Assembly (NCBI GenBank): GCA_902790415.1
Contig: CADARU010000007.1
Span: 1,412 to 65,411, forward strand
Origin: an uncultured Pseudomonadota bacterium
GTDB taxonomy: Bacteria > Pseudomonadota > Alphaproteobacteria > Rs-D84
Length of the DNA stretch: 64,000 nucleotides
Direction: 5' to 3'
In this document: piece by piece, positions 9,360-35,903 of the stretch
How the letters are laid out: each line of letters opens with the position of its first letter
Position numbering within the stretch: position 1 is the first letter of the stretch
Made by a program: the position numbers and the translations under genes
Notes under the pieces: generated by a model
The model's database searches: none
Told to the model about the DNA's origin: nothing
What the model saw: only the letters and a program-made list of their open reading frames with translations

Positions 9360-10527
9360 TTATTTGTATTTTTTCAACATCCAGTAATAGCCAGCACTGA
9401 TAAATAAATTACTGCAAATCAACATAATAACAGCAAAATACACTGACGATAAATCTGCGACAATCCCAACCCCCCAACAAATTACTGCCGATAAAATTCC
9501 ACCAAACAAAGAAACTATTGACCCCATGGTTGCACGCTGTTTTGATGATAATTCTTGCTGTAATAATGCAGATTCTGCGGTGGCTGACGTGCCATACAAT
9601 ATATTCACACACGATTGAATGAACGGTGTTACAAAATTATTCAAAATAACTGCCGTTCCTTTGATTATCATCATACCAATACTGGATGCAACCAAAATCC
9701 GATAAAAACCAAACCGACGAAAATACGGTGCAATAGAGAAACTGATTGCACCACATGTTTGCTTTACTATACGTGCGACGTTAACCGCCCATGTTGGTAT
9801 CAGCAGATTAAAATACGCACCTTCAAACCGATGCCCCGCAGAACTGATACCATGGTTTAGCATTTGGATAGTCGCTAATATCCGCAGTTTTTTTATTTTG
9901 AACAAACGCCTTGATAGCAGCAATAAAGTGTTTGGCCGATGTAACATCTTCGCCATTATGCCGTTTTGGTTCAACAAAACGTAGGCAAATAAAGATTGGA
10001 ATAATATCAATAACCGCACAAACCCACGCAAGTACCGTCAAAGAATAAAAATATGTTATAACAGCGGCAATAAGTGCCCCGACCCCCAAACCAATTTGAC
10101 CAAATGTTTTACTGCGCGCATAGAGTACATCATACCTGTCAGACATACTCAGTTCTTCCATGGTTTCATACATCAACGCATCATCAGTCCCGGATGCGAA
10201 CGCCTCGGCAAGCGCCCATACTACCGCCCCAACAATGAGCAAATATTTATACCCCAATGTTCCCGCCAACGCAAATATCACAGCCATCAAAACTTCTAAT
10301 ACGGCGGATACAACCATCGTTTTTCTGCGACCTATTCTATCAGAAACGATACCAGTCGGAACCTCTGCAATGCTTTGTACAATACCTACGATAGAATACA
10401 CACCCAATGCAAAAGCATACGACCCCGTTATTCGCTGAAAAAACACAACCGCCAAAACAGACATCGGCCACATACTGGCGAACAAATAATAAAGTTTGAA
10501 TAAAAGGATATTTCTGCGAATTTTCAT
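9360..10527 (-). pseudogene. MFS-type transporter interrupted by a frameshift in an A7 run
   Basis: ORFs 9823..10527 (N-terminal half, DRIGRRK loop motif) and 9360..10031 (C-terminal half) overlap. Removing one A from AATAAAAAAACTG (T7 on the + strand, 9888..9894) joins ...AFVQNKK to LRILATIQMLNHG... Confidence 0.7.
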
Positions 10528-10629
10528 GCTGGTATATTAAAAGTTTATAGGAATAAAATCAAGATATTTGCAACCCACGTTTTGCAATTTAGCATAAAAT
10601 ATGCCATAATATTTAAAAAAGAGAACGAT

Positions 10630-11178
10630 ATGAAAAAGACAAACAAAACATCTGTGATTGCAAATGAAAAAATTGATAATTCAAAAATAAAAAAAGCCAC
10701 AGAAATTATTCTTGGTTTACAGCAAGAATTAAAAAAATATACCAGCAAAGGTCATGGCCCGTTTTTGGCCGCTGTTTATGATTCAAAAGGTAATTTAATT
10801 GCCAAGGCCGCAAACAGTGTTGTAAATAAATCTTGCAGTCATAATCACGCCGAAATGAACGCAATAAAATTGGCAGAAAAGAAACTGGGGGCCTATGATT
10901 TATCACCGTATAATTTAAGTATATATGTAACATCTGAACCATGTATGATGTGTTTGGGCGCAATTATGTGGTCCGGGATAAAGGCGATTTATTATGGGGT
11001 CCCTTCCAAACGGGTTACCAAAATAACCGGATTTGACGAAGGTTTTAAACCAGAATGGTACAAAGAATTTAAAAAACGTGGTATAACCGTTTACGGCCAA
11101 ATCGAGCAAGATGTGGGCGAAAAAGTTTTGAAAGATTACGTATCCGATGGACACACAATTTACAAACCCAAGAGATGA
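10630..11178 (+). CDS. CMP/dCMP-type zinc deaminase family protein
   Basis: HAEMNAI and PCMMCLGAI zinc-binding motifs. The ORF is open from 10582, but the ATG at 10630 (MKKTNKT) is preferred. Confidence 0.8.
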   Translation: MKKTNKTSVIANEKIDNSKIKKATEIILGLQQELKKYTSKGHGPFLAAVYDSKGNLIAKAANSVVNKSCSHNHAEMNAIKLAEKKLGAYDLSPYNLSIYVTSEPCMMCLGAIMWSGIKAIYYGVPSKRVTKITGFDEGFKPEWYKEFKKRGITVYGQIEQDVGEKVLKDYVSDGHTIYKPKR

Positions 11179-11179
11179 T

Positions 11180-11225
11180 ATTCACGATTTGTTGTTGTTT
11201 GGGAGAGATATTAAGGTATTTTTGG
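11180..11225. repeat. R1 repeat, short copy
   Basis: ATTCACGATTTGTTGTTGTTTGGGAGAGATATTAAGGTATTTTTGG matches the right part of the R1 copies at 12653, 15633 and 13412. Confidence 0.6.
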
Positions 11226-11246
11226 AAAAACAAATTAAAAAATAAT

Positions 11247-11275
11247 TTGAAAACTCTATATTGACTTGATACTAT
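11247..11275 (+). promoter_or_regulatory. sigma70-like promoter candidate for the NERD gene
   Basis: TTGAAA, 17-nt spacer, TACTAT. The -10 ends only 7 nt before the ATG at 11283, which would imply a near-leaderless mRNA. Confidence 0.3.
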
Positions 11276-11282
11276 ATAACGT

Positions 11283-11996
11283 ATGGAAATATTCATTATT
11301 TTTTTAATTTTAGGATTTGTTGTTTTATTAATTAAATCAACACATAATCATCGTTGTGCTCTAGATGATAGACTAGACCAAATCACATCAGTGGAAAGAG
11401 GAACCTGGTCCGAACGAAATTTAATAAGCTCTCTTCTTGATTACGGAATTTCACCGAAAGCGATTTTTCATGATTTGTATGTTAAAAACGGTAAATATGG
11501 GTCTTCTCAAATAGATATAGTTGTTGCGACAAAAGTTGGTTTGATTGTATTTGAAGTCAAAGATTATTCCGGATGGATATTTGGAAAAGGCAAGGATACA
11601 AAATGGACACAAAGTTTCTATGATAAATACAATGATGAAAAGTACACATATCGTTTTTATAACCCTGTGTTGCAAAATGAATCACATATCAAAGTATTAA
11701 AAAAACAATCAAAACAATTCGCAAATTTACCATTTTATTCTGTGGTTGTTTTTTATGGCGATAGTGAATTACGGGATATTAGTTTCATACCAGATGGAAC
11801 TTTTGTTATAAAACCACACAGATTAGATGATGTTTTAGATATTATTTTTAACAATGACGAAGCAGAATACACAGATAAACGCGAAGTTATGAAAATATTA
11901 AAAACTGCAGTTGATAATGGAAATAATATAAATACACAAACCGAACATATCGAAAAAATTAAAGATATGCTAGGTAAAGATAGAGTGCTGGATTAG
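11283..11996 (+). CDS. NERD (nuclease-related) domain protein
   Basis: N-terminal TM helix. IDIVVATKVGLIVFEVKDYSGWIFG (D...EVK nuclease-like core) followed by NPVLQNESHIKVL, typical of NERD proteins. Confidence 0.75.
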   Translation: MEIFIIFLILGFVVLLIKSTHNHRCALDDRLDQITSVERGTWSERNLISSLLDYGISPKAIFHDLYVKNGKYGSSQIDIVVATKVGLIVFEVKDYSGWIFGKGKDTKWTQSFYDKYNDEKYTYRFYNPVLQNESHIKVLKKQSKQFANLPFYSVVVFYGDSELRDISFIPDGTFVIKPHRLDDVLDIIFNNDEAEYTDKREVMKILKTAVDNGNNINTQTEHIEKIKDMLGKDRVLD

Positions 11997-12052
11997 TATT
12001 GAAAAAGAATGAACAATGTTTTAGAGTATGAATATAATCAAAAGGATATAGA

Positions 12053-12421
12053 ATGAAAAAAGGGGTTTTGTTGTTATTTATATTAGCATTATCTGCTTGT
12101 GGTGCTATGGGCATAGGCAGTAATCATAAAACTATGGTTTACAATAATTCAGATAATATGATAACTGTTACATCAGATAGTGGCGTGTACAGAGTTGAAC
12201 CAAACAATAATATTAATATCTATTCAAAAGAACATATTTCTATTCAAAACAAGAATAAAAACTGTTCTCAAGTTAATGTGGAGCGCGAATTGAATTCCGG
12301 TGCGGTATTTTTAGATATAATTCCGGGTATTTTGTTCGGTATCATCCCAATATTTGTTGATGCGGTAACAAATAATTTGTATAGAATGCCAGAAGCATAT
12401 TCATATAGTTGCGCAGGTTAA
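12053..12421 (+). CDS. hypothetical lipoprotein
   Basis: Signal peptide with lipobox LALSACG. C-terminal hydrophobic segment. 122 aa. Confidence 0.55.
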   Translation: MKKGVLLLFILALSACGAMGIGSNHKTMVYNNSDNMITVTSDSGVYRVEPNNNINIYSKEHISIQNKNKNCSQVNVERELNSGAVFLDIIPGILFGIIPIFVDAVTNNLYRMPEAYSYSCAG

Positions 12422-12446
12422 ATGTCCCCAATACATACAAAACATG

Positions 12447-12540
12447 AAAAAGGTTAGATTTCTAACCTTTTCTTTTTAAAAGTTCGTAAATATGTGAAAT
12501 AGTGGCTATTTTTAATAGCTGATTTACGAACTGCTGAAAG
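12447..12540. repeat. R2 element (hairpin plus unit with terminal inverted repeats)
   Basis: AAAAGGTTAGATTTCTAACCTTTT hairpin, then AGTTCGTAAAT...ATTTACGAACT inverted termini enclosing a GCTATT/AATAGC hairpin. Near-identical copy at 16569..16653 and a partial copy at 14877..14940. Confidence 0.75.
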
Positions 12541-12652
12541 TATTTCAAACAAACAAAAACCGCGAAAATGCGGTTTTGTTTAGTTTCGCTCGGCACGTTG
12601 TGCCTGTGCGGCATTCCTAACGCATCGCGATAAATCGCTCTGCTACTCATAG

Positions 12653-12734
12653 TGGCAGGGCCATCTGTGCAATTCACGAGATGATTTTATGCGTGATTTG
12701 TTGTCGTTCGGGAAAGAAATTAAGGTGTTTTTGA
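12653..12734. repeat. R1 repeat, long copy
   Basis: TGGCAGGGCCATCTGTGCAATTCACGA...TTGTTGTCGTTCGGGAAAGAAATTAAGGTGTTTTTGA. Matches 15633..15714 over about 80 nt. Confidence 0.75.
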
Positions 12735-12742
12735 TGTACTTA

Positions 12743-12772
12743 TTGAAAAATCATGGTATATTGCGGTATAAT
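12743..12772 (+). promoter_or_regulatory. sigma70-like promoter candidate for the HAD gene
   Basis: TTGAAA, 18-nt spacer, TATAAT. Lies 21 nt upstream of the ATG at 12794. Confidence 0.45.
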
Positions 12773-12793
12773 GAATAACAAAAAGGGCACGCT

Positions 12794-13390
12794 ATGCATT
12801 ATTTAATAGATTTGGATAATACTTTATTAACAACTTTCTTTTTTGATAAAGATAACAACGTAAACTTCTATTGGTCACAGAATTTTAAAAACGATTTCGG
12901 ACAATCCCCAAGAATTTTAAAAGATTTATTTTGTGAACCATTTTTAACTATGTTGCGAACCAATGATGATTTACGGCCATACGTTAATACTTTCTTGCAA
13001 AAACATAATTTAAAAATAACAGCGGAAGAATTTTTGGAATATTGGTTGTCCCGGGATTCGCGAATCAATTCAGATGTATTGGATTGGATTTGTACACATC
13101 ATAATCCAGAAAACCATTTTCATATAGCTTCCAACCAACCAAATGTTCGTATGAACTACATTTGGGAACACAGACCTGAATTACACGAGTTTTTTGAAAA
13201 TATTTTTATATCTGCCAACATCGGAACATCAAAACCAGACCCTGTGTTTTTTGTAAAAATACAACAAAAACTGAAAGTCCCCTTTTCTGAAATTTGTTTG
13301 ATAGATGATGAACCTAAAAACATACAATCTGCGAAAACTTTAGGCATGCAAACCGTATTGTTTAATTCAACGAACGACTTGCCCAAGTGA
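12794..13390 (+). CDS. HAD-superfamily hydrolase
   Basis: Motif I DLDNT (LIDLDNTLL), motif II ASN, motif III KPDP, motif IV LIDDEPKN. Confidence 0.75.
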   Translation: MHYLIDLDNTLLTTFFFDKDNNVNFYWSQNFKNDFGQSPRILKDLFCEPFLTMLRTNDDLRPYVNTFLQKHNLKITAEEFLEYWLSRDSRINSDVLDWICTHHNPENHFHIASNQPNVRMNYIWEHRPELHEFFENIFISANIGTSKPDPVFFVKIQQKLKVPFSEICLIDDEPKNIQSAKTLGMQTVLFNSTNDLPK

Positions 13391-13411
13391 TTATAAATAT
13401 TGCAACAAATA

Positions 13412-13440
13412 GATTTTATTGTCGTTCGGGAAAGAAATAA
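13412..13440. repeat. R1 repeat, short copy
   Basis: GATTTTATTGTCGTTCGGGAAAGAAATAA matches the core of R1. Confidence 0.55.
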
Positions 13441-13472
13441 AAACATTTCTACAAATTCTGTGATATAACGAA

Positions 13473-14369
13473 TTATGAATTTATGTTTTTATCAAAATCG
13501 TCTTTAAATTCTTTTATCGTTTTATATCTATTGTTTTTATTGTAAGCAGTTGCTTTTAGTAAGACATTATAAACATTTTTATTTAGTTCGAATTCTTCTA
13601 ATTTATTGGGTATAAAACATCCCTTGTTATACCTTTCTTGTATGTTTGAAGTATTGCTAAACATATCAAATATAATTGCACCCAATGTAAATAATGATGT
13701 TTGTTCGTCTATTACTGCACCTAATTCGTTTTCTTCGGGGGCTTTTAATCTTTTGGTTCCAAAATAACCCGTTCCTAAATCATTTATCGTTGGCATTTTC
13801 CTAAATAAATCTATATCACAAAAAGTGACTTCATCATTCTTAAAATCGTAAATTATACTACTATCGTAAAAATCTACGGCAACATATCCAGCATCAATAA
13901 ATGATTCAAAAAACGAAAACAATTTATCTGCAACTTTTAATCTTTTTTCTACTGGTAATGATTTGAATTTCATCAAAGGTGTTATTTCTTTGGTTTTTTC
14001 ATATCTATCAAAGTTCCAATGATCAAACAAACATTCACCTTCAGCATATTCATAAATCACAACATAAAATTCTTTATATTCAAAAGCATCTACCAGTTTA
14101 ATCAAATTTTTATGCTTAATATCTTTGTATTTTACTGCTGCTTCTTTTAATAATTTGATTGATTCTTTTTCGCTTATTTCAGCATTAACTGTTTTTGCAC
14201 CAGCAATTTTGAAAAAATACTTTCTATTGTCCTTTTTTATACCAAAAGATATACAGCCACTCCCAGTTTCATCTATCACACTAAATACAGTACCATAATT
14301 ATTTAGCCAAGAAAAATCTTGATATTCTTTTAATTTAAATTCTATTCCATCTATAACTTGTTTAATCAT
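13473..14369 (-). CDS. Hanks-type (eukaryote-like) Ser/Thr protein kinase-like protein
   Basis: 298 aa. Gly-rich loop region, FKIAG (VAIK-like Lys), VDFYDSSIIY catalytic-loop equivalent (degenerate HRD), FCDIDLF (DFG-like), GTKRLKAPEE (APE motif). Confidence 0.7.
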   Translation of the reverse strand: MIKQVIDGIEFKLKEYQDFSWLNNYGTVFSVIDETGSGCISFGIKKDNRKYFFKIAGAKTVNAEISEKESIKLLKEAAVKYKDIKHKNLIKLVDAFEYKEFYVVIYEYAEGECLFDHWNFDRYEKTKEITPLMKFKSLPVEKRLKVADKLFSFFESFIDAGYVAVDFYDSSIIYDFKNDEVTFCDIDLFRKMPTINDLGTGYFGTKRLKAPEENELGAVIDEQTSLFTLGAIIFDMFSNTSNIQERYNKGCFIPNKLEEFELNKNVYNVLLKATAYNKNNRYKTIKEFKDDFDKNINS

Positions 14370-14385
14370 ATTGTTCTCTTTTTAA

Positions 14386-14835
14386 TTATAAATTTTTTAT
14401 ATAAACTCTGGTTGGGTTGCCTTCTCGGTTATTCATAATTTTCCAGAACACGAAACCATATTTTTCATATAGACCTATATGGTCAGTAGATATATATACT
14501 TTCTCGATTTTATTGGATTTCAGTGTATCACAAATATGATTTATCAATTTGCCAATGTTGTTATTACCACGATATTTTGGAAAAGTATACGCAAAACCAA
14601 TCCATGGGGACAATTCAGGTGCAACGATTTCATCTTGTTCTGCTAATATTACAAAAGAAGCCAAATTATCGCCATCTGTAAGTAAAAAAATCTCTGTTGA
14701 TTTTCCACATATTTGTTTTAATTTGTCGGTATTTAACCATGAATACAACAGTTTTGCTGCCGACCAATCACCTTTACCTATCTCGTTTTTCCAGTGCTCT
14801 TGATTTTTGGATTGATAATATTTAATAATCTGCAT
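14386..14835 (-). CDS. GNAT-family N-acetyltransferase
   Basis: 149 aa. YRGNNIGKLINH (motif A, Q/RxxGxG/A-like) and LYEKYGF. Lies 16 nt upstream of the kinase gene on the same strand. Confidence 0.8.
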   Translation of the reverse strand: MQIIKYYQSKNQEHWKNEIGKGDWSAAKLLYSWLNTDKLKQICGKSTEIFLLTDGDNLASFVILAEQDEIVAPELSPWIGFAYTFPKYRGNNNIGKLINHICDTLKSNKIEKVYISTDHIGLYEKYGFVFWKIMNNREGNPTRVYIKNL

Positions 14836-14876
14836 CCGTTAGCCTTTCAATTTATCTTTAATGTTAATTATATCAT

Positions 14877-14940
14877 AAAAAGTTCGCAAATCACCAAAAA
14901 GGTGTCTGTTTTTACTACCCAACTTACGAACTGCTGAAAT
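14877..14940. repeat. R2 element, partial or diverged copy
   Basis: AAAAAGTTCGCAAAT...CAACTTACGAACTGCTGAAAT shares both termini and the right flank (ACGAACTGCTGAAA) with 12447..12540. Confidence 0.6.
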
Positions 14941-14983
14941 GCTTGTAAATCTAAATAAAAAAATCACCAAAAGGTGATTTTAT

Positions 14984-14999
14984 TATTTTGGCAGCCCCA
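14984..14999. repeat. att-like duplicate of the tRNA-Glu 3' end
   Basis: TATTTTGGCAGCCCCA is identical to 16914..16929. Eleven of these nt are the acceptor 3' strand, discriminator and CCA of tRNA-Glu. Both copies follow a CACCAAAA(C)GGTG terminator hairpin. Confidence 0.7.
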
Positions 15000-15142
15000 A
15001 TATGACAACTTGAGAACTGCTATAACCCTATACTACGCAGAAACCCAGGAAAACCTTGATGCGTTAGAAGAGTTTTTAAACAATAATGACTTGATTTTGC
15101 AATAGATTATGCTAGTTTTAAAATGATATAAAGGTAATCGAT

Positions 15143-15592
15143 ATGTTTTGGTTAAAAGAAAAAATAATCCAATTCAAAGAATACTACAGATTAAAGAAAG
15201 AATATAAAATTAAAAAGAAATGGGCTTATTCTTTGAATCCTGCGAACACAAAATCAAATAGTCGCATATATGCAGAACACCAATCAAAACAATGGATTGT
15301 TATTTCGGGACCAGACAAGGGTTTATTTGGTACTAACAACTACCCATGTATTGTTAAAAAAATTGCTTTGGATGCAACAACATTAGAACCTGTTTTTGAA
15401 GAAGATAAGACTTTTTATTGTCCAAATTTTGACCACAATACCCCTTGCAAAAAGGTTGATTGTATGTGGAACAAAGCTAACAAAGAACATTTTGAAGAAC
15501 AAGAACGATTTCATAATGCTTTGGAAGAATTAGTAAATGTTGGAGAAAAACTAAATGCGGCACGTATGCATTTGTTCGGGCATGTAAAATAA
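15143..15592 (+). CDS. hypothetical protein
   Basis: 149-aa ORF. Lys-rich N-terminus and a Cys cluster (YCPNFDHNTPCKKVDCMW). No family recognised. Confidence 0.5.
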   Translation: MFWLKEKIIQFKEYYRLKKEYKIKKKWAYSLNPANTKSNSRIYAEHQSKQWIVISGPDKGLFGTNNYPCIVKKIALDATTLEPVFEEDKTFYCPNFDHNTPCKKVDCMWNKANKEHFEEQERFHNALEELVNVGEKLNAARMHLFGHVK

Positions 15593-15632
15593 TCCTTGAA
15601 AAGCACCACCTATTTTGGGTGGTTTGAATTTT

Positions 15633-15714
15633 TGGCAGGGCCATCTGTGCAATTCACGAACTAATACTATGTGTGAATTGTTGCAGTTTGGGAAAAATGT
15701 TAAAGTGTTTTTGA
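15633..15714. repeat. R1 repeat, long copy
   Basis: TGGCAGGGCCATCTGTGCAATTCACGA...TTGTTGCAGTTTGGGAAAAATGTTAAAGTGTTTTTGA. Preceded by the hairpin CACCACCTATTTTGGGTGGT. Confidence 0.75.
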
Positions 15715-15843
15715 AAAATTACACATAATACAAAGTTACTCAATTTGAGTTGCTCCTCCATCAAAGGCCATCACGAGCAAAATCCACCACCACGAACAAT
15801 GTAATACATTTGTAAGTTTTAAAATTATAAAAAGCAAGGTCAT

Positions 15844-16467
15844 TTATTCAGCTTTCTCAACAATCTTTTTAAAATCTATAGCAACTTTATCAAGACATTT
15901 TAGCCATTCATCTTCTTCATATATACATTTGTTAATGTCTTCCTGAACTGTATATTTTTTTTTGCATTTTTTTGCAACAGATTTACTCGGTTTTGAAGAA
16001 CCACAAACCTTTTCAAGATATGCAGCAGCAACATCTTCAAATTTGTCCATATAAGGAGCATATTTGTGCTTACATTTGTCTATGCGTTTGGATGCAATAT
16101 TATTTATAATAGCTTCTTTTGCCGCTTTAGGTGTGGTTTCATTATATATCATATTAACATCTTTCATTGTCACTTCTTTAGCAAACGCCTCTGCGTAACA
16201 ATCGGCATACTTTTTCATATCATCTACAAAGTATGAACTATCAAAGCCAATCTGATCAAATTGCTCTAAACTTAAACTAAAATAACTATCATATTTTTGA
16301 TCGTAAATAAATTTATATACTTCTTTTTCTTCAACCATTTCACAACCACTAAAACCAGACATATTTATACACAAATTTACTTTTTCATGACTTCTTTTAC
16401 TTAAACCATAGACATTTGTCATAAAGAAACAAGAAAAAAGAACCGCTACCAATGAGATTTTTTTCAT
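15844..16467 (-). CDS. hypothetical secreted Cys-containing protein
   Basis: 207 aa with a clear signal peptide (MKKISLVAVLFSCFFMTNVYG). No family recognised. Confidence 0.55.
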   Translation of the reverse strand: MKKISLVAVLFSCFFMTNVYGLSKRSHEKVNLCINMSGFSGCEMVEEKEVYKFIYDQKYDSYFSLSLEQFDQIGFDSSYFVDDMKKYADCYAEAFAKEVTMKDVNMIYNETTPKAAKEAIINNIASKRIDKCKHKYAPYMDKFEDVAAAYLEKVCGSSKPSKSVAKKCKKKYTVQEDINKCIYEEDEWLKCLDKVAIDFKKIVEKAE

Positions 16468-16568
16468 TTTTGTTACCCTCTTAATTACATTCCTAACTTT
16501 AAAATATTATCAAATTTTTTTCAACCCATAAATAAAAGTTAAAGACCCACAATGTATACGAACTGCGC

Positions 16569-16653
16569 AAAAGGTTAGATTTCTAACCTTTTCTTTTTAA
16601 AAGTTCGTAAATGTATGAAACGGTGGTGTTTTTTGATAGCTAATTTACGAACT
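16569..16653. repeat. R2 element copy
   Basis: Near-identical to 12447..12540, including the GGTTAGATTTCTAACC hairpin and the AGTTCGTAAAT/ATTTACGAACT termini. Confidence 0.75.
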
Positions 16654-16666
16654 CACACCAATAACG

Positions 16667-16714
16667 AAAATCAAAAAAATCTCCGTTTGTCGATTTTTTA
16701 AGATTTTCTTAATT
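16667..16714 (-). repeat. promoter-like module, variant copy
   Basis: Minus strand reads AATTAAGAAAATCTTAAAAAATCGACAAACGGAGATTTTTTTGATTTT. Related to 8494..8540. Separated from the 15844..16467 start by the R2 copy. Confidence 0.5.
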
Positions 16715-16918
16715 GTCCCACTCGGAATTGGTCATGCGCGCCCATACCACGAAAACATAGTTTTCGCACGACACATGCGTGTCGCAGGCGCTCTGACCGC
16801 ATTCGTTTGCGCTCAAACTTCGCTTCGTTCGTTTTCGCTTACTCATAGTGAACCTCCGGTTCAAACCCGGGGGTTGAAGCAAAATAAAACGACCACCAAA
16901 ACGGTGGTCTTTTTATTT

Positions 16919-16993
16919 TGGCAGCCCCACTCGGATTTGAACCGGGATTCTCGCCTTGAAAGGGCGGTGTCCTAACCATTAGACGATGGGGCC
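16919..16993 (-). tRNA. tRNA-Glu (anticodon TTC)
   Basis: Minus strand GGCCCCATCGTCTAATGGTTAGGACACCGCCCTTTCAAGGCGAGAATCCCGGTTCAAATCCGAGTGGGGCTGCCA folds as a 75-nt cloverleaf. My fold leaves one C:A mismatch each in the anticodon stem and the T stem. Confidence 0.82.
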
Positions 16994-17012: not shown

Positions 17013-17089
17013 TGGCGGGATGTAAGGGGCTCGAACCCTCGACCTTCTGCGTGACAGGCAGACGCTCTAACCAGCTGAGCTAACACCCC
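17013..17089 (-). tRNA. tRNA-Asp (anticodon GTC)
   Basis: Minus strand GGGGTGTTAGCTCAGCTGGTTAGAGCGTCTGCCTGTCACGCAGAAGGTCGAGGGTTCGAGCCCCTTACATCCCGCCA gives a clean 77-nt cloverleaf. Confidence 0.93.
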
Positions 17090-17132: not shown

Positions 17133-17169
17133 GTATTTTTTTCACAAAAGGCATTTTTTTGTTTTCTTG

Positions 17170-17970
17170 TTACCCACGATGGTGTTTTGACATCGCATAC
17201 GAAAACAGTGATGCCCCAATAATAAATAACGCACCAGACAACAGTTGTCCCATCGTCAATCCCCACGTGGTCAAGAACCCTATTTGCGCATCAGGTGTGC
17301 GGAAACCTTCACAAAATATTCTAAACACCGCGTATCCCATCGCCATTATACCGGCCAACGCACCGGGCCGCGCACGCAGGTTTGTTTTACGATACAAATA
17401 AAACATTATCAAAAATAACAAAACACCTTCGGTTAGGCCTTCGTATATTGGACTGGCATGGCGCGGAACATCAGATACCCCACGAAAGAAAACCGCCAAC
17501 CCAGAATCAGACGGACGGCCCATCAATTCCATATTTATAAAGTTTGCCACGCGCCCAAAAAACAGCCCTATTGGTGCAATTACCGCCAACATATCCAATA
17601 TACGCAGTCCACGTATCCATTGCTTGGCAAAACAAAATGTCGCGATAATAACCCCCAACAGGCCACCATGAAAACTCATCCCGCCATGCCACAGCATTAC
17701 TATTTCCCATGGGCGTGCAATAAAAAATGCCGGATTATAAAACAACACATACCCCAGACGACCACCCAATATAACCCCCAAGATAATCGCCGTAAATAAA
17801 TCGTCTAAATCCTTCTTGTTCAGTTTTAATTCATCATCCCGCTTTAAAAAGGATTTCAGCATAAAATACCCAACGACAAATGCCGCAATATACGCCAACG
17901 CGTACCAGCGCACCGGTAACCCCAAAACAGAAAACGCAACAGGCGAAATAGGATTTATTACGATTGCCAT
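17170..17970 (-). CDS. lgt: prolipoprotein diacylglyceryl transferase
   Basis: 266 aa, polytopic. VRWYALAYI, GGRLGYVLFYN, WHGGMSFHGGLLG and GRVANFIN motifs typical of Lgt. Confidence 0.9.
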   Translation of the reverse strand: MAIVINPISPVAFSVLGLPVRWYALAYIAAFVVGYFMLKSFLKRDDELKLNKKDLDDLFTAIILGVILGGRLGYVLFYNPAFFIARPWEIVMLWHGGMSFHGGLLGVIIATFCFAKQWIRGLRILDMLAVIAPIGLFFGRVANFINMELMGRPSDSGLAVFFRGVSDVPRHASPIYEGLTEGVLLFLIMFYLYRKTNLRARPGALAGIMAMGYAVFRIFCEGFRTPDAQIGFLTTWGLTMGQLLSGALFIIGASLFSYAMSKHHRG

Positions 17971-18809: not shown

Positions 18810-20357
18810 ATGGCTTATAAAATAGACCCGACAAAATGTATTGGTTGTCATTCTTGTATGGGGATGTGCCCAATGATGGCAATTTCTGTGGGTGCCGATG
18901 GTAAATGTGTTATTGACACAACAAAATGCGTATCATGCGGAACATGTGCAGGCGACAATAAAGGTTCAAATAAATATCGTGGGGTTTTGAAAATGTCTGC
19001 TAAAAATGTAAATGATATTGTTGCACTGTGTAAACGGCGTGGGTTCATATTCACCGGTTCGGAAATATACGGTGGTATGGGCGGAACATACGATTACGGT
19101 CCATACGGCGTAGAACTGATGAAAAATATTCGCAACGCCTGGTGGAATTCTATGGTTTATTCCCGCAACGATATCGAAGGTTTGGATGCATCGCTAATCG
19201 GTAATCGGTTGATGTGGAAATATTCCGGACACGAAGGCGGCTTTTCCGACCCATTGGTTGAATGTAAAAAATGTGGTGCACGTATGCGCCAAGATAAAAT
19301 GCGCGACCAAACAAAATGCGATAACTGTGGTTCAACTGATTTAATGCCGCCACGTGAATATCAATTAATGATGGGGTTGTCAATCGGCGCGGTATCAGAT
19401 GGCGAAATAAACGCATATCTGCGCCCGGAAACGGCAACTACAACGTACATAAACTTTAAAAACGTATTGGACTCTACGCCGCATAAATTGCCGTTCGGCA
19501 TCGTTCAAATCGGCAAGGCGTTTCGTAACGAAATTTCACCGCGCGGATTCGTTTTCCGTATGCGCGAATTCGAACAGGCGGAAATGCAATACTTTGTTCG
19601 TCCGGGTGAAGATGAAAAGTATTTTGACATGTGGCGCGAAACCCGTATTGCATGGTGGACAAATGTTTTGGGGATACCGGCAAACAAATTACGCTTTACA
19701 CCACACGAAAAACTGGCCCACTATGCCAAGGCCGCCGGTGATATAGAATACGAATTTCCTGATGGTTTTGATGAAGTAGAAGGTGTTCATAATCGCCAAG
19801 ATTTTGATTTGGGTTCACATACAAAATCCCAAAATGAATTTAAAATTTCTGCGCACGTTATGAAAAACGAAGACAGTACAATTAAATTGGCATATTCTGA
19901 CCCACAAACAGGCGAGAGTTTTATTCCATACGTAATTGAAACCGCAATGGGTGTAAATCGCGCCATGATGGCACTGATGATAGAAGCATACACCGAAGAA
20001 GATTTGGGTGATGGCAAATCGCGCATTGTATTGAAATTAAAGCCATGGTTGTCCCCGGTCAAGGCCGCGGTTATTCCATTGGCACGCAACGTTCCTGAAT
20101 TGGTTGACATCGCAAATAACATTGAAAACGATTTACGCAAATTGGGTATTGGACGTATTGAATTAGAAAACTCTGGAAACATCGGTAAAAATTATCGCCG
20201 TCATGATGAAATTGGTACACCGGTATGTATAACGGTTGACCATCAAACATTAGAAGATGGCATGGTTACAATGCGGCATCGCGATACCATGGAACAAGAG
20301 AGAATTAAAATCGCTGACGTTCCCGCACGTGTCAAAGAAATCGTTTCGCAAAATTAA
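18810..20357 (+). CDS. glyQS: glycine--tRNA ligase (dimeric GlyQS type) with N-terminal ferredoxin-like extension
   Basis: From Met62 (18993): IVALCKRRGFIFTGSEIYGGMGGTYDYGPYGVELMKNI, FRNEISPRGFVFRMREFEQAEMQYF, and class II motif 3. Residues 1-61 carry the CIGCHSCMGMCP and CVSCGTC Fe-S motifs. A strong SD (AGGAG) precedes 18810. Confidence 0.9.
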   Translation: MAYKIDPTKCIGCHSCMGMCPMMAISVGADGKCVIDTTKCVSCGTCAGDNKGSNKYRGVLKMSAKNVNDIVALCKRRGFIFTGSEIYGGMGGTYDYGPYGVELMKNIRNAWWNSMVYSRNDIEGLDASLIGNRLMWKYSGHEGGFSDPLVECKKCGARMRQDKMRDQTKCDNCGSTDLMPPREYQLMMGLSIGAVSDGEINAYLRPETATTTYINFKNVLDSTPHKLPFGIVQIGKAFRNEISPRGFVFRMREFEQAEMQYFVRPGEDEKYFDMWRETRIAWWTNVLGIPANKLRFTPHEKLAHYAKAAGDIEYEFPDGFDEVEGVHNRQDFDLGSHTKSQNEFKISAHVMKNEDSTIKLAYSDPQTGESFIPYVIETAMGVNRAMMALMIEAYTEEDLGDGKSRIVLKLKPWLSPVKAAVIPLARNVPELVDIANNIENDLRKLGIGRIELENSGNIGKNYRRHDEIGTPVCITVDHQTLEDGMVTMRHRDTMEQERIKIADVPARVKEIVSQN

Positions 20358-20383: not shown

Positions 20384-21091
20384 TTATTTATTATTTAAAA
20401 AATCTAAAGCTTTACGAACTTTATCAGCATATCGTAAATTCATTGCTCTTTTGAAACACGCTTCATATAAGCGTTCCAAATTATTGTGCATAGCTGGATC
20501 CACTTCAGAATTAAATGCAATTCCCTTGTCACCATCCGTATTCAAACGCAATGTATATTCTGGTTTAGGGCTATCACACATCTTTGCAATTGAATAGTCA
20601 TGTGAATTAACCGCCAATTTGCCATTACTAAATACTAAAAAGCCCATATTTTCTGTTTCATAAACTTTGGTGCATTTTTCCAGAATTTTGAAACAACCTT
20701 CAAAAATCATATCTTCATCAGACAATACTTCTACTTTAACACCATCCCAGAACGCCGCTATTTTGTCCTCAGTTAATACTTTGTCAGATCCTTTAACTTT
20801 GACTTCTTCCTGTGGCTTGCACTCTTCCAGAAGCGCTTCCTGTGGCTTGCACTCTTCCAGAGGGCCTTCTTGTGGCTTACATTCTTCTATTAATACGTCA
20901 TCACCACAATCTTTACCAGATTCCGCACTTTCAACCCCAACAAATTTAAAAGGTTCACTCTCAAACAGCCCTTCCAAAACAGGGTAATTTGAACGCTTTT
21001 TTTTGCTGTTTTTTTTCGCTTCACTAACCCCCAAAAAGGTAAAACCTGCCTGACTAAAATCAACCATTTTTTGTTCTACTTGGTCTGCCAT
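20384..21091 (-). CDS. hypothetical protein with EECKPQE tandem repeats
   Basis: 235-aa ORF with no signal peptide. Three 10-aa repeats (LIEECKPQEGP / LEECKPQEAL / LEECKPQEEV) separate two non-repetitive domains. Confidence 0.5.
   Translation of the reverse strand: MADQVEQKMVDFSQAGFTFLGVSEAKKNSKKKRSNYPVLEGLFESEPFKFVGVESAESGKDCGDDVLIEECKPQEGPLEECKPQEALLEECKPQEEVKVKGSDKVLTEDKIAAFWDGVKVEVLSDEDMIFEGCFKILEKCTKVYETENMGFLVFSNGKLAVNSHDYSIAKMCDSPKPEYTLRLNTDGDKGIAFNSEVDPAMHNNLERLYEACFKRAMNLRYADKVRKALDFLNNK
20806..20895. repeat. 3 x 30-nt in-frame tandem repeat
   Basis: CTTCCTGTGGCTTGCACTCTTCCAGAAGCG / ...AGAGGGC / a degenerate third copy. Encodes the EECKPQE repeats. Confidence 0.85.
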
Positions 21092-21203
21092 TTTTATTTC
21101 CTTTGTTTGTTGTTATTTTTTATTTATACGAATAATATAGCACAAAAAAATATATTGTCAAGCAATTCTATAAAAAAATTAAACCGACATTTGCCGGTTT
21201 TTT

Positions 21204-25238: not shown

Positions 25239-25465
25239 AAAACATCCTTATGTTTTTGTTGTTTATCACCAACCCCCATTATTGGCAAGATTGGTGTTGC
25301 ACCCCCACATCGCCCATTATTGGCAACAATGCTTTTTTTAGGAATACAACCCGAATATTTTACACCTTGTGTAAACAAAGTCAAAAACTTTGTGCAAAAC
25401 AACACGTATCTTGATTTTGCCGGTCAAACACCTATAATAAACACATACAAAACAAAGGACACGTT

Positions 25466-25990
25466 ATGGATTCTGATGTTTCAAAAATATTGGCAATGGT
25501 TAACGGCCATGATAGACACGAAAACGAAACCATCGCAATCGCCAAACAAGACCAAGAAAAAATTAACGATGCAATCGAATCCATATTCATGGGTAAAAGC
25601 ATTTTACTCTGGATTCAGGGCGGAAAATTGGTCGATGCATGGATACGCGCACTGGACGAAATGCGCAGTGAATTGTTTGCAATACCAAATAAATGCTGTG
25701 CGGTTACATATCTGCGTAATGCGGTTTTCAACCACCACAATCAATGGCAACGCAAAATGACGGCCAGTAATGAACGTAACTCGGTGGCACAAATCAACAA
25801 CAAATCAGAATATGATAAATTGGTTGACCACGCAAACACACTTATATCTGTTGGCGAACAAACAATATCCGACATGATACGGAAATATTCTGAAACCGGT
25901 GGCGAACATATACAACCCAAACAAAATTTTACACAAATGGCAATTACTAATACACGCGAACATGAACAAAGCCGAATCAGAAAAAGATAA
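25466..25990 (+). CDS. hypothetical protein
   Basis: 174-aa ORF with an AAAGGA SD. Preferred over the overlapping ORF 25320..25760 on composition. Confidence 0.5.
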   Translation: MDSDVSKILAMVNGHDRHENETIAIAKQDQEKINDAIESIFMGKSILLWIQGGKLVDAWIRALDEMRSELFAIPNKCCAVTYLRNAVFNHHNQWQRKMTASNERNSVAQINNKSEYDKLVDHANTLISVGEQTISDMIRKYSETGGEHIQPKQNFTQMAITNTREHEQSRIRKR

Positions 25991-26072
25991 TCCGGCACCT
26001 TGAAAACACATACAAAAAGAACTATAATTACAAATGTGAGTGTGGGATTAACCGAAGTCAAGAGGTGCAAAC

Positions 26073-28091: not shown

Positions 28092-28159
28092 AAAACACCA
28101 CCCATTTGGGTGGTTGTTTTTTATTAAGAAAAAATTCTTGACAATTTTATGATTTTGTG
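28092..28159 (+). repeat. 68-nt terminator-plus-promoter module, copy 1
   Basis: AAAACACCACCCATTTGGGTGGTTGTTTTTTATTAAGAAAAAATTCTTGACAATTTTATGATTTTGTG. Contains TTGACA at 28138..28143. 66 of 68 nt are identical to 30403..30470. Confidence 0.85.
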
Positions 28160-28191
28160 CTACACATATTGTAACATAATCAGGAGGGCTT

Positions 28192-29283
28192 ATGCACACG
28201 ATAAAGAACCTTGAACAAAAGTTTGTTTCAAACACGTCCATCTACACATTGAATTTTGCGAACTTGACCGAAAAGCCCGATTCAACAAAAAATTTAACTG
28301 CAAAACAAGTTCGACACGACATTGCGGCATTTGCGCAGATGTTGATAAATATTTACGGTGGTTGGCCGTTCTTTTCGGCAAAAATTCGCAAAAATATATT
28401 AAACAAATTGGATGAATTTTATGAAAATACAACAGATGGAACAACCGCACAAAATTTATTTAACAACCTGACCACAATTGTTCAAATTATACCAGATAAT
28501 CATTTATGGATAAAACTTGGAGACAAAGTTTCGAAATATCCACGACCAGAACGCATAGATATTGGTGAAAACCTGGCTAAAAAATATGGAAATGGTAAAA
28601 AGTATTTTATCGGCAAATTGAATAACATTGGAATCATCGCATTTTCAAAATGCTTTGCACCAGATAATCCAGAAGACATGGAAAAGTTCCGCAAGCTAGT
28701 CCGTGATGCCATGACCGATACAGATGCAATAATTATTGACATGCGTGATAACCCTGGTGGCAGTCCGACTATTATATCTATGATAGCAACTGAACTTAAC
28801 GGCACCGACATTGTTCCAAGATGCGATATGATATATGCACGTACCACACCACAGGCGGTGGAATTATACAAATATTTTAGTTTACCTTACGAAAATAGAG
28901 ATTTAAGCGTTGACCCAACAATACAAACAGACAACCACGGTTTCAAACTGCCACAAGAACATAAATTCGCATACAATAAACCAATTTATATTTTGCAAAA
29001 CAATCGCTCCGCATCATCAGCAGAACACCTGCAAACCACTTTACGTTTTAACCCAAATCTAAAAATCGTAGGTTCTAATTCATTGGGGTGCCGACAACAC
29101 ACACAATACAAGCCGTTTATATTGGAACACTCGCGCATTATTGCGAACATTTCCACAAATTACGCACACGTTCCAGAAATAAAAAAATTTGAAACACACG
29201 GCTTTACACCAGATATATGTGTTTCTAATGGCATAGATGCATTTGATGTTGTAATGGCGCAAATAAACAGAAAGGTAAAATAA
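28192..29283 (+). CDS. S41-family (tail-specific protease-like) peptidase, paralog 1
   Basis: IIDMRDNPGGSPT and NRSASSAEHL (catalytic Ser region). No signal peptide or PDZ domain is evident. Confidence 0.72.
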   Translation: MHTIKNLEQKFVSNTSIYTLNFANLTEKPDSTKNLTAKQVRHDIAAFAQMLINIYGGWPFFSAKIRKNILNKLDEFYENTTDGTTAQNLFNNLTTIVQIIPDNHLWIKLGDKVSKYPRPERIDIGENLAKKYGNGKKYFIGKLNNIGIIAFSKCFAPDNPEDMEKFRKLVRDAMTDTDAIIIDMRDNPGGSPTIISMIATELNGTDIVPRCDMIYARTTPQAVELYKYFSLPYENRDLSVDPTIQTDNHGFKLPQEHKFAYNKPIYILQNNRSASSAEHLQTTLRFNPNLKIVGSNSLGCRQHTQYKPFILEHSRIIANISTNYAHVPEIKKFETHGFTPDICVSNGIDAFDVVMAQINRKVK

Positions 29284-30383
29284 TGACACGCACAATTTCC
29301 GAAATGGAAAAGTTTTTGTTAACCGATTCCAAAACAAGAGATTTGTTACCACCAGAACAAAACTCCTTGCCACCGGATACACAATTGACCACAAAACAAG
29401 TTCAACACGACATTTCGACATTTGCACGCATTTTGATAAATGTGTATTGTGGTTGGCCATTTTACAATGAAAAACTTAAACAAAAAACATTAGATGCATT
29501 GCTTAACCTTTACACTAATGCAACTAATGAGTACTGTGAAAAACTGTTCAATGATTTGGGTGCATTGCTTGCCGACTTTCCGGACAATCATATACGAATT
29601 ACAATGAACGGGTACAACAAAGCGGCCAAAACGAAATTACGAAAAAAACGCCCCCATGTCGGCGATAACATTGCCGGTGATAAAAAGTTTTACATAACAA
29701 CAAAAGATGATACTGGTATTATTGCTATATCTAGTCTGAGCGCATGGACAAAACCACAAGAGGTAGAATTCGAAAAACAATGGCGTAGCGTTTTACCGCA
29801 AATAAAAAAATTGGTCATAGATTTACGCGACAATCGTGGTGGCAATGATACATATACAAACAAATTAGCCGACCATATATTGGGGTATAACGCACCAAAT
29901 GCACGTCGCATATACGTACGCAACAATCCGGACGCAAACAGAATTAAAAATTTAGAAAAGAACAGAATGCGTGGTCGATTTGATGTAAACACGCCTAATG
30001 ATCCGGTATTACTACCCGATTATTCAGATGTGACACAACAAAAATTTATTTCTAAATATGCTGGTTTTAACGGTCCGATATATGTACTAATAAATGGACA
30101 CACCGCATCATCAGCCGAAATGTTTTGCACAAAAATAAAAAACTATCCCAATGTTACATTTATTGGAACAAACACACTTGGATGCGAAATTTATGGGTTT
30201 GTTGTACACACATCGTTACCAAACAGTAAAATAGATTTTGCCGTTGGTTTTGTTCATCGTGAATTATTTGTAGATAATTTTGAATTAAATGGATACTCAC
30301 CTGATATAAACGTCCCAGATGGCACAGATGCATTTGATGTTGCCATGCAACAAATCGCATTAAATAAAGACAAACAAAAATAG
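29283..30383 (+). CDS. S41-family peptidase, paralog 2
   Basis: VIDLRDNRGGNDT and GHTASSAEMF. The N-terminus is collinear with paralog 1 (TTKQVQHDISTFARILINVYCGWPF versus TAKQVRHDIAAFAQMLINIYGGWPF). Its start overlaps the paralog 1 stop. Confidence 0.72.
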   Translation: MTRTISEMEKFLLTDSKTRDLLPPEQNSLPPDTQLTTKQVQHDISTFARILINVYCGWPFYNEKLKQKTLDALLNLYTNATNEYCEKLFNDLGALLADFPDNHIRITMNGYNKAAKTKLRKKRPHVGDNIAGDKKFYITTKDDTGIIAISSLSAWTKPQEVEFEKQWRSVLPQIKKLVIDLRDNRGGNDTYTNKLADHILGYNAPNARRIYVRNNPDANRIKNLEKNRMRGRFDVNTPNDPVLLPDYSDVTQQKFISKYAGFNGPIYVLINGHTASSAEMFCTKIKNYPNVTFIGTNTLGCEIYGFVVHTSLPNSKIDFAVGFVHRELFVDNFELNGYSPDINVPDGTDAFDVAMQQIALNKDKQK

Positions 30384-30402
30384 CAATAGAATAAATTTTA
30401 AC

Positions 30403-30470
30403 AAAACACCACCCGTTTGGGCGGTTGTTTTTTATTAAGAAAAAATTCTTGACAATTTTATGATTTTGTG
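30403..30470 (+). repeat. 68-nt terminator-plus-promoter module, copy 2
   Basis: Same as 28092..28159 apart from two substitutions in the hairpin. TTGACA at 30449..30454. Confidence 0.85.
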
Positions 30471-35501: not shown

Positions 35502-35903
35502 TTATCCGTTAAAATCTTTACAACTGTCAAGTTTACGAACTTTTTCTATATCACCAAGTTTGCTCAATGCGGTTTTGCAAAAACGGTTATCTTTTTGTTC
35601 AGTAGAAAGATTTTCTGATGGCATACTACCCCCACCCGATGTGCCGCCGGTACCACCAGATTTTATACTGGATACTTTTTGATATAATTTTACATTTGCT
35701 GCAACACCCACGCCCGCAAGACCTATGGCAACACCACCCGCTATTTTTTGTTTCTTTACACCCTGGTTGCATTGCTCTATTTTTTGTTTCAATTCGTCAC
35801 GACGTGATTCTAATTTTACTATCTGGTCATCAAGAAGATCCGGCGCGGCAAACACAGGTAACGAAAACAACAGAAAAAACAGTAAAAATATTTTATTTTT
35901 CAT
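35502..35903 (-). CDS. secreted coiled-coil protein with a Gly/Ala-rich segment (family member P2)
   Basis: The ATG at 35903 (MKNKIFLLFFLLFSLPVFA) overlaps the end of the upstream gene by 11 nt. Contains ELKQKIEQCNQGVKKQKIAGGVAIGLAGVGVAANV. Confidence 0.5.
   Translation of the reverse strand: MKNKIFLLFFLLFSLPVFAAPDLLDDQIVKLESRRDELKQKIEQCNQGVKKQKIAGGVAIGLAGVGVAANVKLYQKVSSIKSGGTGGTSGGGSMPSENLSTEQKDNRFCKTALSKLGDIEKVRKLDSCKDFNG

Follow-up and report, generated by a model that had tools for sequence, protein, structure and literature searches.

In integrons, the recombination site attC is organized as R''(RYYYAAC)-L''...L'-R'(GTTRRRY) with a conserved fold and a variable sequence, and the gene cassettes are mostly promoterless and lie in one orientation. 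The sub-1-Mb genomes of gut-associated Rs-D84 bacteria have been regarded as static and shrinking. Rs-D84 is the order of Candidatus Enterousia-like bacteria, with genomes of less than 1 Mb (PMC12306168). Tandem accretion of integrase-less cis-mobilizable elements (CIMEs) flanked by attachment (att) sites, together with elements of the integrative and conjugative (ICE) or integrative and mobilizable (IME) type, has been described (Pavlovic, 2004; Bellanger, 2011; both as cited in PMC5704250). Tycheposons of Prochlorococcus form tRNA islands by successive integrations that leave partial tRNAs (bioRxiv 10.1101/2020.12.28.424599). Small serine recombinases accompany defence genes for a reason left unexplained, and they have been proposed to mobilise these genes, with no sites or mechanism given (PMC13552941). 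Here, we describe a locus in a 64,000-nucleotide stretch of DNA from an Rs-D84 bacterium (contig CADARU010000007.1; the whole stretch is called the window), in which a series of small genes follows the 3' end of a tRNA-Glu gene. It is probably an array of miniature mobile units that accreted in tandem at this tRNA end and are served by an enzyme acting in trans.

The region differs in composition from its surroundings, as an earlier sequence-only reading of this DNA had noticed: the G+C content is 0.313 at 10582-16918 and 0.408 in the remaining window, and the island genes range from 0.265 to 0.361 against a mean of 0.428 ± 0.021 for the backbone open reading frames (ORFs). Pfam and the ORFs also agree with the gene list given then: a NERD protein, a lipoprotein-like protein, an HAD hydrolase, a protein kinase (Pkinase), a GNAT protein and two hypothetical proteins of 149 and 207 amino acids (aa), of which the lipoprotein-like, 149-aa and 207-aa ORFs have no Pfam match. 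Four of these genes lie on the plus strand and three on the minus strand, in addition to a deaminase gene, and the units have promoter-like and terminator sites of their own.

The tRNA-Glu gene is intact according to ARAGORN and Rfam, which were used for all tRNA and RNA calls (Rfam at the gathering threshold and at E ≤ 10). The mismatches noticed earlier in two of its stems are real; these two non-canonical pairs recur in five related species, in which the acceptor stem also has a compensatory change, and therefore represent a trait of the lineage rather than decay. Junctions are described below in the orientation of the tRNA, which is that of the minus strand of the window. A 16-mer, TATTTTGGCAGCCCCA, has just two exact copies in the 64 kb, at 14984-14999 and 16914-16929, and its final 11 nucleotides (nt), read as their reverse complement, give the 3' strand of the acceptor stem, the discriminator and the CCA of tRNA-Glu. 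Each copy is preceded by a hairpin (CACCAAAAGGTG, stem-loop 14960-14981; CACCAAAACGGTG, stem-loop 16891-16909), and a core variant with a 2-nt difference from the tRNA 3' end, TGGCAGGGCCA, is found at 12653 and 15633; in all these points the sequence-only reading was right. The pattern TGGCAGSSCCA occurs four times in the window (12653, 14989, 15633 and 16919) against 0.11 expected, on one strand and always inside the region.

The case for mobility centres on the unit that carries the 149-aa gene. The 149-aa protein is identical on 21 contigs, and a base-by-base comparison has revealed that the 654 nt at 14989-15642 are 97.2-99.5% identical in the related loci L132, L134, L136, L138, L140 and L141 (L numbers denote related loci throughout), where they stand in at least four other neighbourhoods. 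Over the 60 nt outside the unit, identity falls to 17-50%, or to 77-82% where another arm of the D1 type, described below, adjoins it. On the tRNA-proximal side the identity starts at GGCCCTGCCA, preceded by either a D1 arm or an unrelated type-2 arm, and on the distal side it stops straight after TGGGGCTGCCA, beyond which there are four different terminator/gene contexts. Since only 10-11 nt are common to both sides of each break, a length insufficient for RecA-type exchange, and the flanks are non-homologous, the exchange took place site-specifically within the tRNA-like core, and not by a homologous route. As judged from these alignments, the boundaries indicate site-specific insertion at tRNA-like ends. 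They also account for the duplicated 16-mer, whose copy at 14984-14999 is the distal core of the 149-aa-gene unit plus 5 nt common to most terminators. Repeated insertion at the tRNA-Glu 3' end, as proposed in the sequence-only reading, is thus supported, but internal cores are used too.

The surroundings of the array are conserved while its contents are not. A protein-guided scan with the neighbouring Lgt, whose top match has 73% aa identity, shows the source to be an uncultured Candidatus Enterousia-like alphaproteobacterium, and the order Lgt-tRNA-Asp-tRNA-Glu is kept in L011, L012, L013, L019 and L024. An objection foreseen earlier, that relatives might carry the same genes at this place, does not apply: none of the window genes, the deaminase included, lies between tRNA-Glu and tRNA-Leu in related species. 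In L011 and L012 this interval is filled by other, unrelated small genes, the cargo being species-specific, whereas the non-coding modules (D1 with its core, terminator-spacer, IR52 and hairpin, as defined below) are shared with the window. Beside the D1 core, 27 nt are shared without a difference by the window (in both copies), L011 and L012, among which Lgt is only about 72% identical. In L012 the tRNA 3' end is duplicated 260 nt downstream and followed by the ancestral terminator, which reads as the classic footprint of an insertion at a tRNA end.

The cassettes of the window recur elsewhere. The two-gene cassette of NERD and lipoprotein is 81-86% identical in L059, L108, L087 and L110, and the kinase is also present in L095. 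GNAT and kinase, which are fused in the window with no junction in between, adjoin a real tRNA-Glu in L068; in L067 two IR52 copies enclose GNAT alone. The G+C-rich insert, terminator and spacer of the junction module called J3 lie upstream of a different cassette in L142. The deaminase had been taken for the border of the backbone; however, its 3' end together with a partial D1 arm (D1R) is found, 78-82% identical, inside the tRNA-Glu arrays L072, L094, L078, L052 and L126, and L011 and L012 lack the gene in the interval. It follows that the deaminase is cargo and that the array reaches to about 10.6 kb. The gene order of the array recurs at 100% identity in contigs of three tracked samples (ERZ27280471, ERZ1029115 and ERR3275116), which excludes an assembly chimera. 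Among IMG/VR contigs no IR52, D1 core, micro-ORF (see below) or relative of the family-A serine recombinase SR-A (see below) was found, so that a free virus-like form is unsupported.

Repeat finding and reading of the sequence give one order for the junctions: P arm, core, terminator hairpin and a 52-bp inverted repeat, IR52 (Table 1). The D1-type P arm measures about 82 nt and has two full and two partial copies in the window. IR52 has the layout AGTTCGTAA-N10-AAAAA-N19-TTACGAACT and three copies, followed at two sites of the window by a hairpin module, AAAAGGTTAGATTTCTAACCTTTT. Its arms are invariant, 9-11 bp long, inverted and 30 bp apart, and its A-tract is invariant as well. Half-sites that resemble both an IR52 arm and a T-loop, (A/G)GTTCG..A.T, lie 8-15 nt before the cores in both types of P arm. 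No Rfam family was matched in the non-coding parts of the array. The repeats are larger than those first seen, which did not extend to the 82-nt D1 arms, the 52-nt IR52 or the hairpin modules. What had been called att scars are indeed copies of the tRNA end at junctions, but they are not inert, being parts of conserved, functional-looking att modules of 120-250 nt shared between species.

One metagenome scan with the IR52 pattern yielded 82 loci, mostly from rumen-type samples; with relatives added, the survey comprises 127 IR52 copies and 85 loci. CTGCCA is present 53-57 nt before 85 of the 127 copies, and at exactly 56 nt in 67 of these 85. The 85 CTGCCA sequences belong to 22 real tRNA-Glu genes (UUC or CUC), 30 TGGCCCTGCCA cores and 33 other variants or tRNA-identical scars. 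An IR52 of mixed orientation or opposed to tRNA-Glu was found at none of the 85 loci. Neighbouring IR52 copies are separated by 489-2400 nt (median about 0.8 kb, with one outlier of 5.2 kb), which is the spacing of cassette-sized, single-gene units. The core and its partners do not behave as a generic terminator motif, another objection raised beforehand: they occur only here in the window and are tied to tRNA-Glu, in one orientation, in the related loci. A dispersed miniature inverted-repeat transposable element or repetitive extragenic palindromic (REP) element was rejected as an identity for IR52, complete copies being confined to tRNA-Glu arrays. The arm TTACGAACT by itself has seven copies in the window against 0.5 expected, five of them in the array; the two lone half-sites are in intergenic DNA at 20412-20420 and 35533-35541, the latter directly upstream of the TTGACA box of a gene starting at 35471.

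How would such units move? They are 0.65-2.4 kb long, with one or two cargo genes, and encode no recombinase. Each unit has an attP-like site, whose P arm, of the D1 type or of type 2 (the latter also encoding a 43-aa micro-protein), ends in a pseudo-tRNA 3' end, TGG(G/C)(G/C)CTGCCA, and whose opposite P' arm comprises the terminator hairpin and often an IR52 56 nt past the core. In the mechanism that we propose, a circular unit would recombine through the short CTGCCA core with the tRNA 3' end or with any resident core. Upon insertion the tRNA end would be regenerated, the unit would be left between two cores, and older units would be displaced outward or split. With a core retained at each junction, units could be inserted, excised and reshuffled like integron cassettes. 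The enzyme would be supplied in trans, the best candidates being two families of small serine recombinases (Resolvase + HTH_7), and homologous exchange within the conserved junction modules would produce extra mosaicism. A more ambitious version, in which the locus is a platform parallel to the integron, with the tRNA-Glu 3' end as the primary site, crossovers at TGGSSCTGCCA, IR52 as an accessory or second site, the 43-aa protein as a regulator or directionality factor, serine recombinases in trans and largely defence-type single-gene cassettes, is possible but on the whole doubtful.

Several observations weigh against accretion by site-specific insertion. Pattern search, Pfam and tblastn detected neither an integrase nor a resolvase or transposase, whether in the region, where the sequence-only reading had already noticed the lack, or elsewhere in the 64-kb window, and a recombinase is also absent from most related arrays, including stretches of 8-10 kb on long contigs. 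Neither a circular form nor an empty site has been seen; look-ups with GNAT, HAD and lipoprotein for empty-site contigs of the window array gave the same arrangement only. The core is without obvious dyad symmetry of the kind expected for the crossover site of a serine recombinase, and common cores of 6 nt at the 3' end of a tRNA are found more typically with tyrosine integrases. Moreover, the boundaries of the GNAT, NERD-lipoprotein and 207-aa-gene units lie off the core, inside IR52 or conserved modules, and a single crossover site therefore cannot account for everything. Finally, the serine recombinases could be merely another defence-linked cargo (PMC13552941).

At GNAT and NERD-lipoprotein, IR52 is divided: its right half goes with the downstream cassette, and its left half and the terminator go with the upstream context. 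In other cassette clusters the IR52 interior differs throughout. Window and L142 have the 207-aa-gene segment in near-identical form, but the flanking D1 is only about 89% identical. Inspection of IR52 pairs cluster by cluster showed mixed breakpoints; an all-pair comparison of flank linkage used flanks that were conserved modules themselves. We read this as a putative second layer, consisting of exchange at IR52 or of homologous exchange inside conserved modules.

Could homologous recombination alone, with the junction modules as portable homology arms, for example after DNA uptake, build the array without any dedicated recombinase? The modules would be suited to it, being 80-250 nt long and 80-95% identical across arrays and species, and the 207-aa-gene segment with its divergent D1 flank, the IR52 interiors that track neither flank consistently and the lack of a recombinase in most arrays fit as well. 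However, the 149-aa-gene unit changes its neighbours with nothing but the core in common, unrelated flanks lying beyond the breaks (a D1 or type-2 arm on one side, four terminators on the other), and the fixed 56-nt spacing, the single orientation kept at all 85 loci and the constancy of the IR52 arms suggest that a protein-recognised site is under selection. We consider homologous recombination rather unlikely as the sole process.

Alternatively, IR52 might be the true recombination site, similar to attC, with the first IR52 after tRNA-Glu similar to attI and with the cores and terminators as passengers. Its oriented, invariant inverted arms and A-tract, its cassette-sized spacing and its division between upstream context and downstream cassette at GNAT and NERD-lipoprotein would all be expected of such a site, and a variant inverted repeat with covarying arms lies by a serine recombinase gene at the tRNA-Ser of L017. 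However, the most recently mobile unit, that of the 149-aa gene, has no IR52 and is bounded by cores; X-type insertions (see below) are flanked by core repeats and have no IR52; and other cassette clusters differ across the whole interior. Since this interior shows no convincing covariation (alifold gives the outer stem alone; the highest mutual information is 0.28), a folded attC-like strand is unsupported, and the arms, GTTCG...CGAAC, are the reverse of the AAC...GTT of attC R''/R'; on these two grounds attC itself was rejected as the identity of IR52. IR52 is thus an improbable crossover site for the whole array, and is more likely a double-stranded protein-binding site. That ordinary terminator or REP-like motifs or an assembly artefact in a drifting A+T-rich gene patch imitate an array is most improbable, for although duplicated terminators or promoters also flank other strain-level indels of the window and lone TTACGAACT half-sites exist at 20412 and 35533, the core and complete IR52 are confined to the array in 64 kb, 85 loci from many samples are tied to tRNA-Glu, and the gene order is the same in three samples and the gene content wholly different between species.

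If the units are moved in trans, the enzyme should be sought in the related loci. All fetched loci were queried with XerD and Hin sequences and then with Pfam. Two families of small serine recombinases (Resolvase PF00239 + HTH_7, 189-200 aa) are present in these loci, and Phage_integrase, in about 0.5 Mb of them, is limited to a 194-aa fragment in L059 and a weak match in L028. The recombinase gene is transcribed towards a core located 260-580 nt downstream in L070, L086, L156 and L157 (family A) and in L077 and L129 (family B), and in the family-A loci the core comes with a type-2 arm, as in the 149-aa-gene unit of the window. Because the recombinase genes are placed repeatably by a core, the units of the window look like non-autonomous relatives of recombinase-bearing elements. 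This placement suggests that the small serine recombinases may be the enzyme that acts in trans, which we rate at a little below even. Enzymes of the resolvase/invertase type act on sites that are dyad-symmetric about a 2-bp crossover; in IR52 the arms form a dyad, but the spacer between them is 30 bp. A single-strand transposon of the IS200/IS605 or Helitron kind, considered on account of a subterminal hairpin about 11 nt before the unit end, was rejected as the HUH family was unmatched among the scanned proteins.

In some related species Lgt is followed by tRNA-Ser(UGA). L017 has there (11143-12072) the variant inverted repeat, AGTTCGGAAG...CTTCCGAACT, between tRNA-Ser and a family-B serine recombinase gene. 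In L014 (about 12258-12440), about 150 nt of G+C-rich DNA are inserted and bordered by a 20-nt repeat of the tRNA-Ser 3' end. A system of this kind may also be at work at this second tRNA.

The type-2 arm encodes a micro-ORF with the consensus ..FWQPQ(I/Y)DN.RT.I(S/T)LY.AE..E.LD.LEEFLN... Nine of its 17 codon differences from L067 are synonymous, that is, conservation is at the codon level. Among 5.8 billion proteins, a profile search detected 35 relatives, with lengths of 34-77 aa throughout; by its relatives, the micro-ORF stands alone and is not the tail of a split gene. The idea that the type-2 arm is what remains of the 3' part of a long gene disrupted by integration, in the manner of SSV-type integrases, was rejected on the same length range. 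It is a guess that the 43-aa micro-protein acts as a regulator or directionality factor.

Table 1. Parts of the tRNA-Glu array, with positions and strands in the window.
Feature	Position	Strand	Remarks
tRNA-Asp	17013-17089	-	ARAGORN, Rfam
tRNA-Glu(UUC)	16919-16993	-	ARAGORN; Rfam 55.1 bits; identical sequence in five related species
Primary attachment core TGGGGCTGCCA	16919-16929	-	final 11 nt of tRNA-Glu
Terminator hairpin T1 after tRNA-Glu	16880-16918	-	stem-loop 16891-16909; same sequence in L019 and in the displaced L012 copy
X element, G+C-rich, without conserved protein gene	16654-16879	-	body 16730-16879, tail 16654-16714
Degenerate tRNA-like pseudo-core of X element AATTCCGAGTGGGAC	16715-16729	-	
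IR52a, 52-bp oriented inverted repeat AGTTCGTAA..AAAAA..TTACGAACT	16602-16653	-	
Conserved hairpin module AAAAGGTTAGATTTCTAACCTTTT	16569-16592		
Further half-site AGTTCGTA	about 16551-16565	-	after hairpin module
Cargo: 207-aa secreted or lipoprotein-like ORF	15844-16467	-	no family match; same unit in other context in L142
D1b, D1-type P arm	15633-15714	-	ends in pseudo-tRNA core TGGCCCTGCCA (15633-15643)
IR52-arm-like half-site of D1b	15651-15662		
Complete mobile unit, 149-aa gene	14989-15642	-	bounded by two cores
149-aa ORF of mobile unit	15143-15592	+	own promoter
Terminator of 149-aa-gene unit	15605-15623		next to CTGCCA-side core
P arm type 2 of 149-aa-gene unit	15000-15084		half-site 15008-15018; then core TGGGGCTGCCA 14989-14999
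Micro-ORF, about 43 aa	14974-15105	+ (opposite tRNA)	GTG start inside hairpin; reads across core: ..FWQPQYDNLRTAITLYYAETQENLDALEEFLNNNDLILQ
Terminator hairpin beside IR52b	14960-14981	-	
IR52b (one arm TTGCGAACT)	14881-14932	-	exactly 56 nt after core 14989-14999
Cargo: GNAT	14386-14835	-	Pfam
Cargo: Ser/Thr kinase, PD-T4-6-like	13473-14369	-	Pfam
Partial D1 arm (D1R)	13416-13468	-	between convergent HAD and kinase genes
Cargo: HAD-family hydrolase	12794-13390	+	Pfam
Complete junction module J3	12448-12734	-	
D1a of J3	12653-12734	-	core 12653-12663, half-site 12671-12682
G+C-rich insert of J3	12580-12652	-	
Terminator of J3	12556-12577	-	
IR52c of J3	12481-12532	-	
Hairpin module of J3	12448-12471	-	
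Cargo: 122-aa lipoprotein-like ORF	12053-12421	+	no Pfam match
Cargo: NERD nuclease-related protein	11283-11996	+	Pfam
Partial D1 arm (D1R)	11166-11225	-	overlaps deaminase stop codon
Cargo: cytidine/deoxycytidylate-type deaminase	10630-11178	+	Pfam; G+C 0.361; most distal recognisable unit

Between tRNA-Glu and IR52 lies the X element, 170-230 nt in length, which is also present in L012 (11408-11642), L077, L101, L128 and L070; the copies in L101, L128 and L070 are 96-97% identical, with no Rfam match. It starts with an inverted copy of the tRNA T-arm and acceptor (71% similar), ends with a direct degenerate copy and contains two strong internal hairpins. Its 45-aa ORF (16709-16846) has a strong Shine-Dalgarno (GGAGG) site but is unconserved, being truncated in L108 and absent from L012 and L077. 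The X element might represent either a small RNA or a mobile element of miniature, non-coding type. An RNA gene, either a permuted alphaproteobacterial tmRNA or another, was rejected for 16700-16870 and 12580-12652, ARAGORN and Rfam giving two tRNAs only.

Among the cargo, similarity to the PD-T4-6 defence kinases (E = 2e-10) is seen for the kinase, defence models are matched only weakly by the deaminase and NERD, and pairs of AAA_21 and RloB are found in the related arrays L070 and L153. A role of the cargo as a defence island is plausible from these resemblances.

The window contains other variable sites. A 235-aa ORF without a family match (20388-21181), lying between two copies of the terminator AAACCGGCAAATGCCGGTTTTTT and with the lone TTACGAACT half-site at 20412, is absent from the 97-99% identical strains L002, L004 and L005. 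Two tandem Peptidase_S41 genes (28159-30403), about 15 nt downstream of tRNA-Thr(UGU) and flanked by direct repeats of about 65 nt that comprise a terminator and a promoter, are absent from strain L002. At 25452-25996 there is a 545-bp indel relative to L002 and L004, with a 174-aa ORF (as called in L003) and a short flanking repeat, ACACATACAAAA. Conversely, L002 has about 380 extra bases between Lgt and tRNA-Asp (10801-11182), absent from the window at 17149-17171, which include a 52-aa ORF call and a G+C-rich segment able to form hairpins. An MFS transporter gene (9360-10527, minus strand), situated between the array and tRNA-Leu, is split into two overlapping frames, 9823-10527 and 9360-10031, and is probably a frameshifted pseudogene; it is not at that position in L011 or L012. 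The longest ORF of a class-II aminoacyl-tRNA synthetase gene (tRNA-synt_2b + HGTP_anticodon) begins, at 18810-19000 on the plus strand, with a Cys-rich stretch resembling a 4Fe-4S ferredoxin, CIGCHSCMGMCP...CVSCGTC; in the gene calls of other assemblies the start is 20 codons later (495 aa), which would remove the first Cys cluster.

One tRNA-linked locus is thus a place of single-gene turnover between strains as well as species, and several of these genes are defence-like. If the proposed mechanism is true, it would represent a compact, sequence-recognisable cassette system that could be used for mining accessory and anti-phage genes from rumen and gut metagenomes, and it would give a concrete role and defined DNA sites to small serine recombinases reported as unexplained markers of defence genes. 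It may also provide a new, simple module for site-specific insertion, its att core measuring about 11 nt. A search of the literature found no description of such an arrangement, and the array is best understood by comparison with the systems introduced above.

The recombinases of the related arrays are, like those linked to defence genes, small proteins of 189-200 aa with Resolvase and HTH_7 domains beside AAA_21 and RloB (L070, L153). Unlike the latter, the related arrays show a repeatable position of the gene by a defined core; the window has no such gene. With integrons and clusters of attC sites lacking integron integrases (CALINs), the array shares single-gene cassettes of about 0.5-2.4 kb, separators of about 50-60 bp in the form of imperfect palindromes in one orientation, the same cassette at different positions across arrays and, as in CALINs, a missing integrase. 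However, the window has no IntI, attI or Pc, and IR52 has neither the R''-L''/L'-R' architecture nor structural covariation. The genes of the array are in mixed orientation with their own promoters and terminators, its sharpest boundaries are at tRNA-like cores, and its platform is a tRNA gene.

The likeness to tycheposons lies in a streamlined genome with islands adjoining tRNA genes, partial tRNAs between insertions, newer insertions displacing older ones, and defence cargo. In tycheposons, however, which are integrated at a tRNA or tmRNA gene, a recombinase of the tyrosine or large serine type is encoded and replication genes are frequent; the units of the window have none of these. The units of the array are also far smaller, the partial tRNA is 11 nt (or its 2-nt variant) within a conserved arm, and a 52-bp inverted repeat is added at a fixed 56 nt.

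By analogy of function, the nearest concept appears to be the tandem accretion of CIMEs. In both cases att-flanked elements without integration genes would stand in tandem at the 3' end of a target gene (for CIMEs, a tRNA or protein gene), regenerating this end, and would be mobilisable only through the enzyme of another element. However, CIMEs are decayed ICEs or IMEs of tens of kb, whereas the units of the array measure 0.65-2.4 kb and have no remnants of conjugation or relaxase genes. The junction of the array is a composite module common to dozens of unrelated cargos in several species, and its candidate enzyme is a small serine recombinase in place of a tyrosine integrase.

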